From NCBI GenBank assembly GCA_041658605.1, contig JBAZZU010000011.1, positions 3,300-67,299 on the forward strand: DNA of 64,000 bases, in the 5' to 3' direction. This document shows, in pieces, positions 24,417 through 56,779 of this stretch. How positions within the stretch are numbered: position 1 is the stretch's first letter; every line of letters starts with the position of its first letter. This stretch comes from Thermoleophilia bacterium. GTDB lineage: Bacteria > Actinomycetota > Thermoleophilia > BMS3ABIN01. The translations under genes were made by a program, and so were the position numbers. The notes below the pieces were generated by a model that searched no databases, was not told the origin of the DNA, and was given only the letters and a program-made list of their open reading frames with translations.

Positions 24417-25268
24417 GTGAAAATAACAGGCACAACAAAGTTGCTGGGCATTCTGGGTGACCCTGTATCCCACAGCCTGTCTCCACTGATGCATAATCGT
24501 GCGTGTGAGGAGTTGGGTCTGGATATCTGTTATGTGCCATTGAACGTCAAGGCAGATCAGCTTGCTATGGCCATCGACGGCCTCAGGGCGATGCGGTTTC
24601 TGGGCGCCAATATAACAATTCCACACAAGGTATCGGCGCTGGCCCTAATGGACAGACTGGCGGATAGCGCTAGAAACGTCGGAGCGGTAAATACAGTAGT
24701 TAACAAGAACGGATTGCTCACAGGCCATAACACCGATGGCGCCGGCTTCATCCGGTCTCTGGAGGATGCGACATCGATCGATTATGCTGCTACATCCGTT
24801 GTCCTGCTGGGAGCCGGCGGTGCTGCCAGGTCGATAGCCTTTGCGTTGGCAGAAAAAAAAGTATCCAGAATTGTGATCATCAACCGTACGCAGGAGCGCG
24901 CTGTTGAACTCAAAAGGTTGCTCGAACATGATTTTTCGTCATTGGAGATAGTTGTAAAGGGGACAGATGATGAATACGGAGATGATATTTCTGCTGGAAA
25001 ACTAGTGATAAACGCGACTTCAACGGGTCTGGAGGCCGACCTAAAGAGTGCACCGGTGTGGGTCGATAGATTAACGAAAGATCACGTTGTCTGCGACATA
25101 ATTTATAGGGCACAGGAAAAAAATCCACTCCTGGTCGCAGCGCGAGCCAAAGGGGCAACTACATTGGGCGGACTCGGCATGCTTCTTCATCAAGGAGTTA
25201 TTGCGTTCCATTTATGGACCGGAATAGAGCCGCCAGTCGATGTTATGAGGAATTCGATTGAATCCTAG
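24417..25268 (+). CDS. aroE: Shikimate dehydrogenase
   Basis: HSLSP, NITIPHK, GAVNT, NTDG, GAGGAA, ML.HQG; start placed at GTG after GGAGG. Confidence 0.95.
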   Translation: MKITGTTKLLGILGDPVSHSLSPLMHNRACEELGLDICYVPLNVKADQLAMAIDGLRAMRFLGANITIPHKVSALALMDRLADSARNVGAVNTVVNKNGLLTGHNTDGAGFIRSLEDATSIDYAATSVVLLGAGGAARSIAFALAEKKVSRIVIINRTQERAVELKRLLEHDFSSLEIVVKGTDDEYGDDISAGKLVINATSTGLEADLKSAPVWVDRLTKDHVVCDIIYRAQEKNPLLVAARAKGATTLGGLGMLLHQGVIAFHLWTGIEPPVDVMRNSIES

Positions 25269-26973
25269 CGAACTTACATCCCGTACACCCCGCAAGAAAT
25301 TACAGCCTATCGGCGAGATACTCGTCGCCAAGGAACTAATTTCTCGCGAACAGCTTGACGAAGTCCTGGAAAAGCAGAAGGACTCGCCGAAGCGACTCGG
25401 TGAGATCCTCGTCGATGACGGCATCCTGACGCAGGAGCAGCTGAATATCGCCCTGGCGGAAAGACTTGGTGTCGAGAGCCTTGGTCTGGATGAATACAAC
25501 ATCGATTCTCTGGCCGCGACAATGATACCGGAGAAGCTGGCCAGGCGTTATGGCGCCATACCGGTAAAGTTCGTGGATGAAAATACCCTGCTGGTTGCGA
25601 TGGTCGATCCCACAAACGTGTTTGCAATCGATGACCTGCGCATGATGACCGGCTATGACATCAAGCCGGCAATCGCATCGACGGAAGATGTTTTCAATCA
25701 GATTTCAAAAATTCATCGGATGGGCGATTCTGCCAGTAGCCAGGTCGAAGAAGATGATGAGGACTTGCTTGGCGAAACCTCAGTAGACGCTGATATACGC
25801 GAGGTGGCCTCTGAAGCTCCGATCGTCAAACTGGTCAATGGCGTCATCAGCCAGGGCGTGGACGATGGGGCGAGTGACCTTCATTTCGAGCCTCAGGAGA
25901 AAGAACTGGCAATCCGTTTCAGGATTGACGGCGTGCTCCATGCTGTTATGTCGGTGCCAAAGCGCATGCAGTCGGCGGTGCTTTCGCGCCTCAAGGTCAT
26001 GGCTGATATCGACATAGCCGAGAGGCGCATACCCCAGGATGGCCGCATAGGATTAATAGTTGGAGGCAAGCCCATCGATATACGTGTTGCCTCTATGCCA
26101 ACGGTTTATGGTGAGAAGATAGTTCTGCGAATTCTTGACAAGAGCAGTGTCATGCTCAATCTCTCCGATCTTGGTTTCGCCGAGAAGGCGTTGAAGCGTT
26201 ACGAACGATCGTACACGAAACCTTATGGAGCCATGCTGGTCACGGGCCCGACCGGTAGCGGCAAATCCACGACTCTTTATGCGACCCTGAACGTTCTCAA
26301 TTGCAAGGAGAAGAACATCATCACTGTTGAGGACCCTGTTGAATACAGGCTTGCGGGCATCAACCAGACACAGATCAATCCCAAGGCAGGCCTGACGTTT
26401 GCTTCCGGGCTCAGGGCGATCCTGCGCTCAGATCCGGATATCGTGATGGTTGGTGAGATCCGTGACAAAGAAACCGCACAGATAGCTATCGAGTCAGCGT
26501 TAACCGGGCATCTTGTATTGAGCACTTTGCACACAAATGACGCGCCGGGTGCTTTGACGCGTCTTACTGAGATGGGGATCGAGCCATTCCTGTCAGCATC
26601 AGCCATCGAGTGTGTTTTAGCGCAGAGACTGGCAAGGCGCCTCTGCTCAAACTGCAAGGAACCATATCATCCTACGGATGAAGCCCTGGCTCAGAACGGT
26701 TTCCCCCAGGAAGTCATAGGCAAAGACATCACACTGTATCGTTCCGCTGGTTGTCCCCGCTGTAACAACACGGGATATAAGGGAAGATTTGGAATTTATG
26801 AAGTCATGCTTGTGAGCGAAGCTATCGAGCGGTTAACGGTGGAGAGAAAAAGTGCCGATGAGATTTCGAGAGTAGCTCAGGCTGAAGGAATGGTTACTCT
26901 GCGTGAAGATGGCATAGATAAAGTCATTCAGGGCATAACATCGATAGAAGAGATAGCCAGGGTCATCATTTGA
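25258..26973 (+). CDS. pilB: Type IV pilus assembly ATPase PilB with N-terminal MshEN-like domain
   Basis: IGEILVAKELIS..LGEILVDDGIL repeats, ASDLH, PQDG, GPTGSGKST, EDPVEY, GEIRD, two CxxC zinc motifs. Confidence 0.95.
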   Translation: MNPSELTSRTPRKKLQPIGEILVAKELISREQLDEVLEKQKDSPKRLGEILVDDGILTQEQLNIALAERLGVESLGLDEYNIDSLAATMIPEKLARRYGAIPVKFVDENTLLVAMVDPTNVFAIDDLRMMTGYDIKPAIASTEDVFNQISKIHRMGDSASSQVEEDDEDLLGETSVDADIREVASEAPIVKLVNGVISQGVDDGASDLHFEPQEKELAIRFRIDGVLHAVMSVPKRMQSAVLSRLKVMADIDIAERRIPQDGRIGLIVGGKPIDIRVASMPTVYGEKIVLRILDKSSVMLNLSDLGFAEKALKRYERSYTKPYGAMLVTGPTGSGKSTTLYATLNVLNCKEKNIITVEDPVEYRLAGINQTQINPKAGLTFASGLRAILRSDPDIVMVGEIRDKETAQIAIESALTGHLVLSTLHTNDAPGALTRLTEMGIEPFLSASAIECVLAQRLARRLCSNCKEPYHPTDEALAQNGFPQEVIGKDITLYRSAGCPRCNNTGYKGRFGIYEVMLVSEAIERLTVERKSADEISRVAQAEGMVTLREDGIDKVIQGITSIEEIARVII

Positions 26974-29401: not shown

Positions 29402-30238
29402 ATGTCTGGCAAAATTGAGATTCAAACCGATGTTTGCGAAGGGAATGGCGTCATAACCGGCGCTGTCCTGGATTTTCCGCGCAATGAAAAGGCAGAGCGG
29501 AAAAACGAGTCGCTTACCGCGGAATATCAGGTCTCCCGAGACCAAGCAGTCCTGGAGAAGATAATTACTCGCAACCAGGGGCTTCTGCACGCTGTTCTGA
29601 GACGCTTCAAATACTTCCCTGATCCATATGAGGATCTTCTGCAGGTTGCAAATCTTGGATTGATCAAGGCTGTGCAAAGATTTGACTGTAATCGTGGTGT
29701 CGGATTCTCCAGTTACGCAACTGCGCTTGTTGACGGCGAGGTTCGCCATTACCTCAGGGACAATGTTCTTATGCGTCAGCCGAGGTGGCTCAGGGCGGCA
29801 GAGAAACGTATCGAAGACGCCTCAATAGAGCTTAATCGTAAACTGAAGCGTCCCCCGACACTTAAGGAGCTTGCACTCGAGGTCAACATTTCCGAAGAGG
29901 GCATTCTGGAGATACTGAGAGTGGTAGCTTCGGTAGGACTCCATCCCGTTGATGATATGGACTCGCATGAGGGTGTTAATGCTCAACCGGACGCAAACGT
30001 GGTTCGTTCACTCCATTATGAGTCCTTTGTGCTGCCTATCGAAGACAAGATTGCGCTACAGGAAGCCCTGGATGCGCTGAGCTCACTTCATAAGAAGATC
30101 GTCTACCTCCTTTTTTACAAGGATCTGACACAAACGCAGGTCGCCAGGGAGCTGGGTCTCTCCCAGCGAAAGGTGTCCCGGGAATCAGCAAAGGCACTCG
30201 GGCGGCTCAAGACTGTCATGAACACGAAGATCTTTTAG
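29402..30238 (+). CDS. SigB/SigF/SigG-family RNA polymerase sigma factor
   Basis: Region 2 EDLLQVANLGLIKAVQRFD..FSSYA..GEVRHYLRD, region 4 TQTQVARELGLSQRKVSR. Confidence 0.9.
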   Translation: MSGKIEIQTDVCEGNGVITGAVLDFPRNEKAERKNESLTAEYQVSRDQAVLEKIITRNQGLLHAVLRRFKYFPDPYEDLLQVANLGLIKAVQRFDCNRGVGFSSYATALVDGEVRHYLRDNVLMRQPRWLRAAEKRIEDASIELNRKLKRPPTLKELALEVNISEEGILEILRVVASVGLHPVDDMDSHEGVNAQPDANVVRSLHYESFVLPIEDKIALQEALDALSSLHKKIVYLLFYKDLTQTQVARELGLSQRKVSRESAKALGRLKTVMNTKIF

Positions 30239-30250
30239 AAAATGCTAAAG

Positions 30251-30276
30251 CTTTATTCGGCAGACGCCGAATAAAG
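30251..30276 (+). terminator. Hairpin after the sigma gene
   Basis: CTTTATTCGGC-AGAC-GCCGAATAAAG; no U tract. Confidence 0.45.
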
Positions 30277-30346
30277 GCCCGTGTTCACGGCTTTACCCCG
30301 GCGGGAAGTGTCTAGGAAAAAAGCAGTTGGGTAGTATAGGGGTGAA

Positions 30347-30425
30347 GGTGAAAAAGGCAAACCACTCGTAAGGGTGGGGCGCAAAGCTACAGGACCAGGA
30401 ATACTTGGTCGGCTGGGCTGCCACC
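30347..30425 (+). ncRNA. c-di-GMP-I (GEMM) riboswitch aptamer
   Basis: P1 GGTG/CACC; GGCAAAC-CACTC-GTAA-GGGTG P2; GCGCAAAGC junction; P3 ending GGGCTGCC; G20 and C92 equivalents present. Confidence 0.92.
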
Positions 30426-30444
30426 AGAGGTTCAGGAAGATATG

Positions 30445-30482
30445 GATCTGTGGTTTGCCATCAGGCCGCAGATCTTTTTTTT
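30445..30482 (+). terminator. Riboswitch expression-platform terminator
   Basis: GATCTGTGGTTTG-CCAT-CAGGCCGCAGATC followed by T8, upstream of the pilin RBS. Confidence 0.88.
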
Positions 30483-30528
30483 GTGGTCTGGCGAAAATAA
30501 TAAACAAAATTGAAAAGGAGGTGACAAC

Positions 30529-30921
30529 ATGATTTCGAAACTTGGAAAAAGAATGCAGGTTAAGGGTGAAGGTGGTTTTACTCTGATCGAACTGTTGGTG
30601 GTTATCATCATCATTGCTATCCTGGCAGCGATCGCCATTCCGATGTACTTAAGCCAGCGTCAGAAGGGCTGGAACGCCAACATGCAGAGTGATCTACGTA
30701 ACGCCGCTGTCGCGGAGGAGAGTTACTTCACGGACAATGCAGCTTATACGAACGTGATTGCGAATCTGGAGCTTCAGGGATTCAATCCTTCAGCTAACGT
30801 GACGCTCGCAGTGGCCTCTGCAGATGCTGCCGGATATTGCATTAATGCAACATATACCGGTTACGCGACCAGATATCATCTTAATAGTACAGATGGTGAT
30901 CCCCGGACAGGTACTTGCTAG
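30529..30921 (+). CDS. pilA: Type IVa major pilin
   Basis: GG|FTLIELLVVIIIIAILAAIAIP class III signal, C-terminal Cys pair, AAGGAGGTG RBS. Confidence 0.93.
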   Translation: MISKLGKRMQVKGEGGFTLIELLVVIIIIAILAAIAIPMYLSQRQKGWNANMQSDLRNAAVAEESYFTDNAAYTNVIANLELQGFNPSANVTLAVASADAAGYCINATYTGYATRYHLNSTDGDPRTGTC

Positions 30922-30969: not shown

Positions 30970-31001
30970 GATGATGGCGGGCCATTCGGCCCGCCATCAT
31001 C
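30970..31001 (+). other. Perfect 14-bp stem-loop between the two pilin genes
   Basis: GATGATGGCGGGCC-ATTC-GGCCCGCCATCATC; no U tract. Confidence 0.8.
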
Positions 31002-31073: not shown

Positions 31074-31472
31074 ATGAAAATGCGCGCTTTCCGGGAAAGC
31101 CTGTCCAGTCGGGACGGCTTTACTCTTATCGAGTTACTGGTCGTAATCATCATCATTGCCATTCTTGCCGCGATAGCCATTCCTGTTTATCTTACCCAGC
31201 GCCAGAAAGCCTGGGATGCCAACAGTAAAAGTGATCTGAATACCGCCGCTGTTGCCCAGGCGACTTATAACGCGGATTTCGGTGTTTATACCGGCGACGA
31301 GGCCGATCTTAAAGCCCGGGGTTATAACAGGTCCGCGAATATTACACTCTCAATTCCCACGAGCGGCGCCACGTTCTGTATGGAGACCTTCCATAGCGGT
31401 GATCCATCAAGGGTCTGGTTCGTGGATAGTGGTTCGGGCAGTCCGAACCCAACGCTTGGTAATTGTCCCTGA
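31074..31472 (+). CDS. Second major-type pilin paralogue
   Basis: DG|FTLIELLVVIIIIAILAAIAIP; C-terminal Cys pair. Confidence 0.92.
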   Translation: MKMRAFRESLSSRDGFTLIELLVVIIIIAILAAIAIPVYLTQRQKAWDANSKSDLNTAAVAQATYNADFGVYTGDEADLKARGYNRSANITLSIPTSGATFCMETFHSGDPSRVWFVDSGSGSPNPTLGNCP

Positions 31473-52924: not shown

Positions 52925-53193
52925 CTCAGATGCTCCGTTTCTGTCATGCCTGGTTTCAAACCGAGTAATATCAAACACGCACATGGCGTGACTTTTCCGT
53001 ATTCTCCAGCCATCACTCATACCCTTCCCGGAAGGAAGTGGCCAGGATGGTCATAACTCATCGTTTAAATGCTTGCCACATGTTGTTGTTTCAACCCTCG
53101 GGCGTTAACCCCTGCATAAAGTCGAATCTTTCTTAAAGGTTTTTTTTGCCTGTACCGATGGGGTTTGAGCAGGATTTCCAATTTAGGGCGGTC

Positions 53194-54951
53194 ATGAAAA
53201 CTCAGGTTTTCAAAACCAGGGCATTTAAATTCAGCATAGCCGCAGCATTCGCCGGGCTTCTTTATGCAACCTTTGCATATCTCGTCGAAGAGAACTACGG
53301 TGCTGATTATGAGGCGATGCATATCATGCTGGCGCCCGTCATCGCGGGTGCTGCCGCCTATTTTATTGGCAAGGCATCCGACCGTATCCACCAGCAGACA
53401 GAAATGCTGGCCGACGCGAAAAAGCAGTTCTCCGATCTCACTCACTCGGCAATCACACAGAGGGACTGGAACGTCAGCTTTGAGGATCCCGCCATTCCTA
53501 CGTGCTGGGAAGTCAAAGGCTGCAAGGCAGAGGATTGTCCGTCCTACGGCAGGCACCATGTTCGCTGCTGGCTTGTTGCCGGAACATACTGCCGCGGCGA
53601 GGTTCAGGGACATTTCGCCCAGAAACTGGGCGATTGCGCCAAATGTGAAATATACAGCGCGGCAATAGATCGTGATCCGATCGACGAGATTGGTGAGAAT
53701 TTCAACAGCCTCATGTGGGTCCTGAAGGAAAAAGAGGAGATGCTCACTCAAACGAACGGGCAGCTTCATGAACAGTACGAGGAACTTGAAGTCATGCATC
53801 AGCAGGCTCGGGAGATGGCGGAAACCGATATGCTGACCGGTCTTAAGAACCATGCCCACTTCCAGGAGCAGCTGCTCGGCGAAGTCGAGAAAGCAAGGCG
53901 GCTCGCGCAGCCACTATCACTGATCATGCTCGACCTTGACCATTTCAAGAACGTCAACGACGAGTTCGGCCACCAGAAGGGCGACGAGGTATTGCAGCAT
54001 GTAGGCAGGCTGATACGACTTGAAACCGATGAAGATGCGTATTCTGCCCGATATGGCGGCGAGGAGTTCGTCATAATTCTGCAGGGAATGATCGCTGACG
54101 ATGCGATGAATGTAGCCGACGACCTGAGACGCAGCCTGAAGCTCGTTGAGAATGACGTAGATCTTCCCGAAGGCTTTGTGGGCGGCAGTTTCGGGGTTGC
54201 CGATATGCCTTCATGCGCCAGCGACGCCGACAGCCTGATATCGGCAGCCGATGCGGCGCTGCTTTTTGCCAAACGCAAGGGCCGCAACCGGGTCGCTTAC
54301 TTCCGTGATCTTGCCGACACCGAGCTTCGTGACGGTGATCTCGACAAACTTCACAGCAGGCTTGAAGGGGCTAGCCTTCAGACGATCAGAGCCCTGGCTG
54401 AAGCAGTTGACGCAAATGATCAATATTCCGCTGTCGACACTTCGAAGATGACCGAAGTCGCCGCTGCCATGGCTGAAAGACTGAATATGCGCCAGGAACA
54501 GGCGGACGCACTTGCCCTAGCGACGAGACTGCACGACATCGGCAAAGTCGGGGTACCCGGTTCTGTTCTGAGAAAGAAAGAAAAACTGTCACCTGAGGAG
54601 CTTTCCATGGTGCAGCGGCATCCACAGATAGGCAAGCGCCTCTTAAAGGAAGCGGAACAGATTCAGGATCTGATTTCGGCGATCCTATATCACCATGAGC
54701 GATGGGACGGTAATGGCTACCCCGAACGGCTCAAGGGTGAAGAGATACCTCTGATGGCGCGTATCGTCGGCATCATGGATGCATATCGAGCGATGCGCAG
54801 CGACCGCCCGTACCGCAAGGCTCTGAGTATCAGGCAATCGTTGGCTGAACTGAGCAAGGGCGCCGGCACGCAGTTCGATCCTGAGCTGGTTTCAATGTTT
54901 GTCGAGCTTCTGGATGAAGGCGAGGAACAAAGTTGGAAACAAGCAGGTTAA
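53194..54951 (+). CDS. TM / Cys-rich two-CW-type domain / GGDEF / HD-GYP protein
   Basis: CWE..C...CP...CW..AGT.C..C..C domain; DLDHFK, GHQKGD, RYGGEEF; HDIGK, HHERWDG.GYP. Confidence 0.88.
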   Translation: MKTQVFKTRAFKFSIAAAFAGLLYATFAYLVEENYGADYEAMHIMLAPVIAGAAAYFIGKASDRIHQQTEMLADAKKQFSDLTHSAITQRDWNVSFEDPAIPTCWEVKGCKAEDCPSYGRHHVRCWLVAGTYCRGEVQGHFAQKLGDCAKCEIYSAAIDRDPIDEIGENFNSLMWVLKEKEEMLTQTNGQLHEQYEELEVMHQQAREMAETDMLTGLKNHAHFQEQLLGEVEKARRLAQPLSLIMLDLDHFKNVNDEFGHQKGDEVLQHVGRLIRLETDEDAYSARYGGEEFVIILQGMIADDAMNVADDLRRSLKLVENDVDLPEGFVGGSFGVADMPSCASDADSLISAADAALLFAKRKGRNRVAYFRDLADTELRDGDLDKLHSRLEGASLQTIRALAEAVDANDQYSAVDTSKMTEVAAAMAERLNMRQEQADALALATRLHDIGKVGVPGSVLRKKEKLSPEELSMVQRHPQIGKRLLKEAEQIQDLISAILYHHERWDGNGYPERLKGEEIPLMARIVGIMDAYRAMRSDRPYRKALSIRQSLAELSKGAGTQFDPELVSMFVELLDEGEEQSWKQAG

Positions 54952-54982
54952 TAAAAGTTCCAGCAGTCAGCCAGGTGACATC

Positions 54983-56779
54983 GTGTTGAATTCTATTGCC
55001 ATGCGTCTGACTTCGATGAGACGCATTTTTTTTGTGATGATCGCCTTCGGTCTGGCCATGGGTATCGCTTTCCCATATATTGTCAATCCCTTCGTCACGT
55101 GGGATTCCGGGCGCAAGTTCTTCTTCCAGCTTGCCTGCCTGGTAGCCGGATTGGCCGTCGGCTCGTTTTGTTTTCTGCTGGCCAAGGTCACTCTTTATGA
55201 CAGGAACCAGCGGCTTGCCAGCCAGAAAGCCGGGCTGGAACTGGCCATGGAACGGTTTTCAACTCTTACGCACACGGCAATAGAAACCCAGAACTGGGAA
55301 GTGAGCTTTGAGGATCCCTCCATACCCTCATGCTGGGAAATGAAAAACTGCACCGCCGGCGAATGTCCTGTTCACGGGCGGGAACACATCCGATGCTGGC
55401 TGGTAGCCGGGACTTTTTGTGGCGGAGAAGTCCAGGGTCGGTTCGCCAAGAAAATTGGAAACTGTTCTCACTGTGAGGTTTACCATGAAGCCGTGGAGCA
55501 CAACCCCATCAACGAGATCGGCGAGAATTTCAACAGCATCATGCTGGTGGTCAAGCAGAAGCAGGATCTGCTGGAATCTGTCAGCTCCGAGTTGAAGGAC
55601 AAATATGCCGAACTGGAGATGATGCACAGGCAGGCACGTGAGATGGCCGACACCGACCTGTTGACCGGCCTTCGCAATCACGCGCATTTCCAGCATCACC
55701 TGCGATGGGAGGTCAGCCAGGCCGTACAGAAGCACAAGCCACTGTCGCTGCTTATGCTCGACCTCGATTATTTCAAGTCGATCAATGACCGGTATGGCCA
55801 CCAGAAGGGCGATGAGGTTCTCAAGGGTGTCGGCAGACTGCTGCGCAATGAAATTAAGAACGGCTATACGGCCAGGTACGGCGGTGAGGAATTCGTTGTT
55901 GTTCTTCCAGAGCTGAAATACAGTGGGGTGATGGAGATAGCCGACAGGCTCAGGGTCGGCATGAAAACGGTGGCCCATGATGCCGATCTGCCCGAGGGGG
56001 TCGTGGCTGCGAGCTTCGGCGTTGCCGACATGCCGGCCTGCGCGAACGATCCGGACAGCCTGATCTCCGCGGCTGATTCAGCCCTGCTGTTCGCCAAGCG
56101 CAAGGGTCGTGACAGGGTTACTTATTTTCGTGACCTGTCGGGCAGCGAACTCGAGGAGGGCGATATAGACCGGCTGCACAGCCGTCTTGAAGGCGCCAGC
56201 CTTCAGACGATCCGGGCTCTGGCGGAAGCCGTCGATGCGAACGACAGCTATCCGCTGGCTGGGGTGTCATCTCTCACGAGGCTGGCCACGGATATGGCGC
56301 AGACGCTGGACCTTAATGATGAGCAGGCAGACGCACTCGTGTTGGCGACCAGGCTGCATGACATCGGCAAGATCGGCGTGCCTGGTTCCATCCTGAGAAA
56401 ATCGGAGAAGCTTACCCCGGAAGAGCTGCTTGTAGTTCAGCAGCATCCCGCCATAGGGCAGCGAATCCTCTGGGAGGCCAGGCAGCTGTCAGACCTTATT
56501 ACGGCGATCCTGTACCATCACGAGCGCTGGGATGGAAAAGGATATCCTGAGAAGCTGCAGGGCAAGCAGATTCCGCTGATGGCGCGTATCGTCGGCATAA
56601 TAGACGCATATCGGGCCATGCGCTGTGATCGTCCATACAGGAAGGCGCTGACGGAAAAGCAGGCGATCGCTGAGTTGCGAAAGGGCGCGGGCAGCCAGTT
56701 CGATCCCAGACTGGTTGACCTCTTTGTCGGGCTTGTGGAATCCGGGCGCGAAGATTCAGGCATCCTGCAAGCCGGCTAG
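54983..56779 (+). CDS. Paralogous TM / two-CW-type / GGDEF / HD-GYP protein
   Basis: Same architecture and motifs as the upstream gene; start uncertain (54983 or 55001). Confidence 0.87.
   Translation: MLNSIAMRLTSMRRIFFVMIAFGLAMGIAFPYIVNPFVTWDSGRKFFFQLACLVAGLAVGSFCFLLAKVTLYDRNQRLASQKAGLELAMERFSTLTHTAIETQNWEVSFEDPSIPSCWEMKNCTAGECPVHGREHIRCWLVAGTFCGGEVQGRFAKKIGNCSHCEVYHEAVEHNPINEIGENFNSIMLVVKQKQDLLESVSSELKDKYAELEMMHRQAREMADTDLLTGLRNHAHFQHHLRWEVSQAVQKHKPLSLLMLDLDYFKSINDRYGHQKGDEVLKGVGRLLRNEIKNGYTARYGGEEFVVVLPELKYSGVMEIADRLRVGMKTVAHDADLPEGVVAASFGVADMPACANDPDSLISAADSALLFAKRKGRDRVTYFRDLSGSELEEGDIDRLHSRLEGASLQTIRALAEAVDANDSYPLAGVSSLTRLATDMAQTLDLNDEQADALVLATRLHDIGKIGVPGSILRKSEKLTPEELLVVQQHPAIGQRILWEARQLSDLITAILYHHERWDGKGYPEKLQGKQIPLMARIVGIIDAYRAMRCDRPYRKALTEKQAIAELRKGAGSQFDPRLVDLFVGLVESGREDSGILQAG

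Follow-up and report, generated by a model that had tools for sequence, protein, structure and literature searches.

We identified, in the mRNA leader of the presumed major type IV pilin gene of a Thermoleophilia bacterium, an element whose sequence features indicate that it is probably a class I c-di-GMP riboswitch, one that switches transcription OFF in the manner of Cd1. The leader contains a downstream terminator that can coexist with the folded aptamer, together with a strand able to pair with either the aptamer or the terminator 3′ arm, which are the features of Cd1-type switches. The kind of switch is known; the lineage and the pilin gene context are new. The experimental knowledge of c-di-GMP riboswitches comes mostly from a few Firmicutes and Vibrio, and, to our knowledge, c-di-GMP signalling in Actinomycetota has so far been described via proteins, such as BldD and RsiG-WhiG. 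A class I riboswitch on a Thermoleophilia pilin leader would show that RNA sensors are present in deep-branching actinobacteria too. Our literature search found no paper combining riboswitch, c-di-GMP and Thermoleophilia, and none that states in general terms how GEMM-I is distributed among Actinobacteria.

Genomic context and orthologous leaders

The stretch analysed, referred to here as the window, comprises 64,000 nucleotides, and a metagenome contig in ENA has the identical sequence. Among genomes, its nearest relatives are Thermoleophilia/Actinomycetota MAGs, whose PilC proteins are 70-92% identical, and the stretch is contained in DNA runs of landfill, groundwater and soil metagenomes. 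The genes are arranged in the order aroE, pilB, pilT, pilC, a sigma factor gene, the riboswitch, two prepilin genes and four minor-pilin or PilX-like genes; the coordinates of the relevant features are given in Table 1. A perfect GC-rich hairpin (30970-31001), with a T-run on the minus strand only, separates the first two pilin genes and probably ends, attenuates or stabilises the riboswitch-controlled pilin 1 transcript before pilin 2. With this hairpin after pilin 1, the riboswitch may mainly control that gene. Elsewhere in the window, a tRNA gene was detected at 1403-1476 (65.4 bits; anticodon loop CAU), which is probably a tRNA-Met.

Orthologous leaders were collected by two routes. A PilC-anchored search of reference genomes, blind to the riboswitch, returned nine loci, five of which have a GEMM-I aptamer at the equivalent place; two of the remaining four end at a contig edge before the aptamer position. 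A DNA pattern based on the aptamer only, blind to the expression platform, returned 12 metagenome loci. Including the window, this amounts to 17 distinct leaders from Thermoleophilia MAGs and metagenomes, each located upstream of a type IV prepilin gene, and 16 of them share the terminator platform of the window.

Table 1. Features of the pilin leader and of related genes in the window (positions count from the first base of the window)
Feature	Position	Strand	Basis or remark
pilB, extension ATPase	25258-26973	+	residues 17-69, MshE-type c-di-GMP-binding motif pair
SigB/F/G-like sigma factor gene, between pilC and riboswitch	29402-30238	+	profile match
Sigma-28/WhiG-like element TAAA-N16-GCCGAATA	30246-30273	+	consensus from PMC8325347
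Promoter-like element TGTCTA-N14-GGGTAGTAT	30309-30337	+	17/17 leaders, fixed distance from aptamer
GEMM-I (c-di-GMP-I) aptamer	30347-30426	+	Rfam match; RNAalifold; pair counts
P1	30347-50 with 30422-25	+	
Aptamer strand GGCAAACCAC, including G20 and the G21/C22 pairs	30356-30365	+	constrained folds
Aptamer G-C/C-G pairs	30357-58 with 30381-82	+	
P1a, closed by GUAA tetraloop 30368-71	30362-67 with 30372-77	+	
P2	30385-95 with 30408-19	+	
Antiterminator hairpin, occupying the outer terminator 5′ arm	30428-34 with 30443-49 (30428-30449)	+	folding, covariation
Intrinsic terminator, 14-bp stem, 4-nt loop, 4 G-U pairs	30444-57 with 30462-75	+	terminator scan, folding, RNAalifold
Switching strand GUGGUUUGCC, inner terminator 5′ arm, exact complement of 30356-65	30450-30459	+	
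T-run, eight T	30475-30482	+	
Conserved helix, terminator 3′ arm/loop with strand directly after T-run	30462-69 with 30483-90 (30462-30490)	+	
Shine-Dalgarno AAGGAGG	30515-21	+	upstream of prepilin ORF
Type IV prepilin, 130 aa, presumed major pilin	30529-30921	+	N_methyl domain, GFTLIE motif
Hairpin, 14 bp, perfect, GC-rich, between pilin 1 and pilin 2	30970-31001	+	sequence
Pilin 2	31074-31472		
Two adjacent genes, GGDEF + HD_5 (HD-GYP-type), GGEEF motifs	53137-54948 and 54854-56776		stop-to-stop reading frames

The aptamer and its ligand pocket

The first-pass annotation, made from the sequence alone, had proposed a full GEMM-I aptamer at this place, and the Rfam scan bore this out with a complete match to the Rfam family RF03167 at 30347-30426 on the plus strand (63.4 bits against a gathering score of 59; E-value 1.3e-12). 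A second family of the clan CL00126 was likewise above its own threshold, which places the element in the c-di-GMP-I group (RF01051 / clan CL00126), and this aptamer is the sole riboswitch that Rfam found across the 64 kb. The two-hairpin architecture of GEMM-I is present, with a GNRA-closed P1a and a P2 that are closed by P1. In the alignment of the 16 leaders, 98.8% of the cells in the aptamer helices are paired, with compensatory changes in P1a and P2, and RNAalifold independently recovered P1, P1a and P2.

The five genomic orthologs were also above the Rfam thresholds. Two orthologs, L009 and L007, scored 60.5 and 58.9 bits, respectively, against the canonical model RF01051 (gathering score 35), which is their best model; the main difference is their longer P2 loop, and they carry the same three pocket residues. 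These residues are canonical in the window: G20 corresponds to 30356, an unpaired G immediately 5′ of the G-C/C-G pairs; A47 corresponds to 30383; and C92 corresponds to 30421, the C that separates P2 from the P1 3′ strand. All three are invariant in 16/16 leaders. The positions previously assigned to the G20 and C92 equivalents, 30356 and 30421, were exact in both the Rfam alignment and the canonical-model alignment of L009.

The identity of the ligand deserves attention, since the window and three orthologs score best with RF03167, named c-di-GMP-I-GGC, and the aptamer might sense 3′3′-cGAMP, or whichever ligand the GGC variants bind, instead of c-di-GMP. The name of this variant presumably refers to a G that replaces A at the A47-equivalent position. 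The consensus of RF03167 has a G at model position 37, where the window has an A (30383), as do 16/16 leaders, so that the element is not a true GGC variant. The cGAMP-selective GEMM-Ib riboswitches typically have an A at position 20, and position 30356 is a G in the window and in all orthologs. With L007 and L009 scoring best with canonical RF01051 and GGDEF enzymes encoded nearby, we consider a ligand other than c-di-GMP very unlikely. From the residues present, we assign the pocket to the standard c-di-GMP type and to neither the GGC variant nor the cGAMP type with A20. The two adjacent GGDEF and HD-GYP-type genes (53137-54948 and 54854-56776), located on the same contig as the riboswitch, likely encode enzymes of c-di-GMP synthesis and degradation, and their presence counts in favour of an OFF switch that responds to c-di-GMP.

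Terminator, antiterminator and the sign of the switch

In the window, the stem of the intrinsic terminator starts 18 nt beyond P1, without any overlap with the aptamer; the two structures are therefore compatible. The terminator 5′ arm TGGTTTGCC (30451-59) had been described as the exact reverse complement of the aptamer segment GGCAAACCA (30356-64), which is correct; the exact complementarity even extends over 10 nt, one base more than first proposed (30450-59 against 30356-65). When the sequence between 30427 and 30461 was shuffled with its dinucleotide composition preserved, a 10-nt complement was reached in 8 of 5000 shuffles and one of at least 8 nt in 138 of 5000.

When the transcript was folded to position 30460, before the terminator 3′ arm exists, the minimum free energy (MFE) structure was an extended antiterminator composed of three parts: UUGCC (30455-59) paired with GGCAA (30356-60), UGGU (30451-54) paired with ACCA (30423-26), which shares bases with the P1 3′ strand, and 30443-49 paired with 30428-34. 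In this structure, the entire terminator 5′ arm is occupied, and both P1 and the pocket strand with G20, G21 and C22 are broken. The GGCAA:UUGCC pairing is part of the nascent-transcript MFE structure of 15/16 leaders, the sole exception being L022, which has a C>A change in that strand. Among the 15, the contiguous 9-bp form is the MFE structure in eight and the split form in seven. The 9-nt antiterminator of the first-pass annotation thus stands as the most stable pairing in eight leaders, although the complete antiterminator is larger than 9 bp and takes the split form in seven. The two forms are usually about 1-5 kcal/mol apart (about 9 kcal/mol in L012 and L017), and the A/G variation at 30364 and 30426, each opposite U30451, is compatible with both. 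On the basis of these folds, the antiterminator may use GGCAA (30356-60) and ACCA (30423-26) instead of, or besides, the contiguous 9-10 nt; in the folding model, both geometries give an OFF switch.

At the decision point, the antiterminator of the orthologs is favoured by 7.2-11.9 kcal/mol over a fold in which P1 and the pocket pairs are enforced, as computed with secondary-structure energies that leave out the tertiary contacts of the aptamer and the folding kinetics. Ligand binding in the nanomolar-to-picomolar range, together with tertiary contacts, could offset a gap of 7-12 kcal/mol.

Based on these folds, we propose a mechanism in which the binding of c-di-GMP would lock P1 (30347-50 with 30422-25) and the pocket strand GGCAAACC in the aptamer, and the switching strand (30443-59) would be left with 30462-75 as its sole partner. 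The 14-bp terminator with its U8 run would then form, and RNA polymerase would stop before the pilin gene. When no ligand is present, the newly made switching strand would invade the aptamer: UUGCC would pair with GGCAA, which includes G20; UGGU would pair with ACCA, either that of the P1 3′ strand or that at the start of P1a; and GGAUCU would pair with 30428-33. The terminator 5′ arm would be sequestered and the pilin gene transcribed, and high c-di-GMP would result in less pilin synthesis.

All the computational tests that were run agree with the ligand-OFF arrangement of terminator and antiterminator that had been deduced from the sequence. The terminator stem, 12-15 bp long and followed by a U-run of 5-8, begins 10-19 nt after P1 in 16/16 leaders; since it never overlaps P1, the bound aptamer cannot block it. 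In constrained folds, nothing conserved other than the aptamer competes for the terminator 5′ arm, and the pairing between the two destroys the ligand pocket. The opposite sign, in which ligand binding promotes read-through, has precedents in class I ON switches, such as Bc2 of B. thuringiensis and, for cGAMP, pilM of Geobacter (PMC6366702, PMC9262584), and a coherent positive circuit with the MshEN-type motif of PilB (see below) would be intuitively sensible. However, an ON design needs a terminator that shares a strand with the bound aptamer, which the gap after P1 in every ortholog speaks against, and the strand that competes with the terminator complements the pocket itself, so that it pairs only with an empty pocket. 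We therefore regard an ON switch as extremely improbable.

The conservation of the leaders points to a second role for the switching strand. The 13 columns from 30447 to 30459 are invariant or nearly invariant in the 16-leader alignment, against a mean column identity of 68%. Within this block, the switching strand (30450-59) is invariant in 15/16 leaders, with the single C>A change of L022, and the adjoining terminator loop varies, as does the terminator 3′ arm. An unchanged switching strand beside a drifting terminator loop is expected if this strand also pairs with the immutable pocket sequence GGCAAACC. In the terminator helix of the 16 leaders, 98.1% of the pairs are kept; both partners have changed in two pairs and one partner in seven. 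One pair of the competing hairpin is C-G in eight leaders, U-A in three and U-G in two. In L012 and L017, this hairpin is retained in a shifted register, with C-G replacing U-A, and position 30446 changes from A to G along with both its alternative partners. From the alignment alone, RNAalifold yielded the canonical aptamer and the terminator. The long-range antiterminator pairs are invariant on both strands and have no covariation of their own; their support comes from conservation and thermodynamics.

This lack of covariation would also be expected if the terminator were a constitutive attenuator or leader hairpin with an incidental complementarity, the aptamer being inactive or acting otherwise, on mRNA stability or translation. 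Two further observations are compatible with such an arrangement, namely the conserved helix after the T-run, which indicates leader structure beyond a simple two-state switch, and the different platform of L014 (see below). Nevertheless, the invariance of UUUGCC, in or beside a terminator loop that normally drifts, is hard to explain without a second partner; the probability of finding such a complement by chance is about 0.002; and the aptamer, the competing hairpin and the terminator are all retained, at fixed spacing, in 16/16 leaders. On this evidence, we think it very improbable that the terminator works independently of the aptamer, and we retain the OFF switch as the preferred reading.

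A search for RNA that might reveal a transcription start or terminated transcripts found one metatranscriptome contig, from a relative. This 221-nt soil contig (run X13), about 97% identical, spans 30450-30671; it starts at the first base of the switching strand, 3′ of the aptamer region, and crosses the T-run into the pilin ORF. Since it spans the terminator, a close relative does produce read-through RNA, as a conditional terminator would lead one to expect; this observation is not decisive.

The helix between 30462-69 and 30483-90, located directly after the T-run, is kept by compensatory changes in most orthologs. Its cognate duplexes have a stability of -14.6 kcal/mol, against -11.6 kcal/mol for non-cognate ones, with a mean z of -3.2, and it may hold the terminator 3′ arm in the read-through mRNA. 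The downstream strand of this helix, 30483-90, is a near-repeat of the switching strand (GUGGUCUGGC against GUGGUUUGCC). RNAalifold also proposed an additional helix between 30340-30343 and 30430-30433 (GGGU with GUUC, mostly with one-sided changes), which lengthens P1 outward. If the transcript started upstream of 30340, the ligand-bound state would have the 5′ strand of the antiterminator hairpin tied up in this predicted helix.

Two leaders depart from the common pattern. In L022 (1167-1358, plus strand, contig Ga0265292_1016297), which belongs to a very close relative of the window, the switching strand reads UUUGAC instead of UUUGCC; the change may be a sequencing error; otherwise, it is a natural variant, for which more termination is expected. 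In L014 (352-538, minus strand, contig Ga0334885_1000084), from a distant relative, the same aptamer precedes a pilin gene and P1 covaries from GGUG/CACC to AGCG/CGCU. Neither the GGUUUGCC strand nor a terminator is present in the L014 leader. Directly after P1, L014 has the sequence CCCUCUCC, complementary to the Shine-Dalgarno sequence GAGGGAGGG, which suggests a translational expression platform in this lineage. The mechanism is thus not universal in the clade. The leader of the window is compact, with clearly separable strands, and its 16 natural variants would make it a convenient model for OFF-switch folding.

Known c-di-GMP switches and other levels of pilus control

The closest known counterpart of the window element is Cd1 (Cdi-1-3), located before flgB of Clostridioides difficile. 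Both have the same aptamer class, and in both the ligand leads to termination (PMC9262584, PMC6366702); the aptamer and the terminator coexist, an antiterminator containing aptamer sequence competes with the latter (the P/A/T/H scheme of PMC9262584), and the gene controlled belongs to motility or to a surface appendage. They differ in that Cd1 controls flagella in a Firmicute, whereas the window element precedes a type IV pilin gene in an Actinomycetota. Additionally, the Cd1 antiterminator, as described, uses the 3′ aptamer strand (A+T), whereas the switching strand of the window also complements exactly the 5′ pocket strand, in which G20 lies.

The first-pass annotation had pointed out that the OFF sign is opposite to that of the ON riboswitch before C. 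difficile pilA1. This is factually right, but it mixed two classes: the pilA1 switch, Cdi-2-4, also lies in the leader of a major type IV pilin and acts on transcription termination in response to c-di-GMP, but its aptamer is of class II, not class I, and its sign is ON (PMC6366702, PMC6200980). All seven functional class I switches of C. difficile are OFF terminator switches (PMC6366702, PMC6200980); the OFF sign is therefore ordinary for the class and unusual only for a pilin gene. The GEMM-Ib element before pilM of Geobacter metallireducens shares with the window element the GEMM-I fold, the location before type IV pilus genes and the action on a terminator (PMC9262584). It differs in sensing cGAMP, in being an ON switch and in that its terminator and aptamer are mutually exclusive. 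Repression of the pilus by a riboswitch would be the opposite outcome to the textbook case of C. difficile pilA1 and would support the idea that the sign with which c-di-GMP controls type IV pili differs between lineages.

Low pilus expression at high c-di-GMP has been described in other bacteria. In Myxococcus, pilA transcription is lowered by high c-di-GMP (PMC12871210). In Rubrobacter, c-di-GMP arms RsiG to sequester the sigma factor WhiG, and WhiG promoters are present in the type IV pilus cluster (PMC8325347). Neither PMC8325347 nor PMC12871210 mentions a riboswitch. The (RsiG)2-(c-di-GMP)2-WhiG complex of Rubrobacter radiotolerans belongs to a sister lineage of Thermoleophilia that branches deeply within the actinobacteria, and its inferred outcome is the same, as high c-di-GMP shuts off the transcription of type IV pilus genes (PMC8325347); besides, a WhiG-type promoter-like motif is conserved upstream of the window riboswitch. 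The difference is that RsiG-WhiG is a protein switch at initiation and the window element an RNA switch at elongation. By this analogy, the predicted OFF sign agrees with the pilus repression through c-di-GMP, RsiG and WhiG inferred in Rubrobacteria.

The extension ATPase PilB was also proposed to respond to c-di-GMP through an MshEN-like domain. Residues 17-68 matched the NCBIfam model NF053729 with 63.9 bits (cut-off 38), and the general MshEN domain of Pfam was found at residues 70-154. The MshE-type layout consists of two 24-residue motifs with a 5-residue spacer (PMC5013675), which PilB matches. Motif 2 (residues 46-69) fits the published relaxed pattern (PMC5013675). Motif 1 (residues 17-40, PIGEILVAKELISREQLDEVLEKQ) has a P for the stacking Arg and an E for the turn Gly, which places it outside even the relaxed pattern. 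The motif model and the spacer fit, but the first half-site is degenerate. From the sequence, the binding of c-di-GMP by PilB, and hence a two-level control, is plausible but uncertain. If PilB binds it, the circuit would be incoherent, since c-di-GMP usually acts on such ATPases with a sign opposite to that of the riboswitch.

Upstream of the aptamer, we found two promoter-like elements. The proximal one, TGTCTA-N14-GGGTAGTAT, occurs once in the window against 0.07 expected occurrences. We take it to resemble SigB/F-type promoters, and it would place the transcription start at approximately the first aptamer base. It may form, together with the adjacent SigB/F/G-like sigma factor gene, a dedicated sigma/promoter pair for the pilin. 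This sigma factor was also considered as a WhiG candidate and rejected, its score being 170.8 bits for SigB/F/G against 90.7 for FliA/WhiG.

The distal element, TAAA-N16-GCCGAATA, resembles sigma-28/WhiG promoters, for which a -35 TAAA and a -10 GCCGATAA, with up to two mismatches and close to the start codon, have been used as criteria (PMC8325347). The window sequence GCCGAATA has two mismatches to the WhiG -10, and that of most orthologs, GCCGATTA, has one. The exact N16 spacing is kept in 14/17 leaders, with a variable spacer sequence, and the element lies about 256 nt from the pilin ATG. Over the whole window, the motif shows no enrichment (2 matches, with 1.75 expected), no WhiG was identified in the window, and no match to the RsiG motif E(X)3S(X)2R(X)3Q(X)3D was found there. 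If the element is real, c-di-GMP could repress the pilin at both initiation and elongation.

These observations allow a broader and more speculative reading, namely that c-di-GMP controls the pilus at three levels with mixed signs, through a WhiG-type promoter and RsiG, the riboswitch and the MshEN motif of PilB, which we consider rather unlikely. Under such control, RsiG armed by c-di-GMP could silence the WhiG-type promoter, the riboswitch would terminate whatever transcription escapes, and PilB would respond to c-di-GMP at the assembly step. The riboswitch would then back up, or replace at the RNA level, the RsiG-WhiG switch known from the sister class Rubrobacteria, and the circuit would be incoherent, as rising c-di-GMP would stop new pilin and still modulate the existing pilin pool. 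In the window and in some relatives, the TAAA-N16-GCCGAATA element overlaps an inverted repeat located just after the stop codon of the sigma factor gene.
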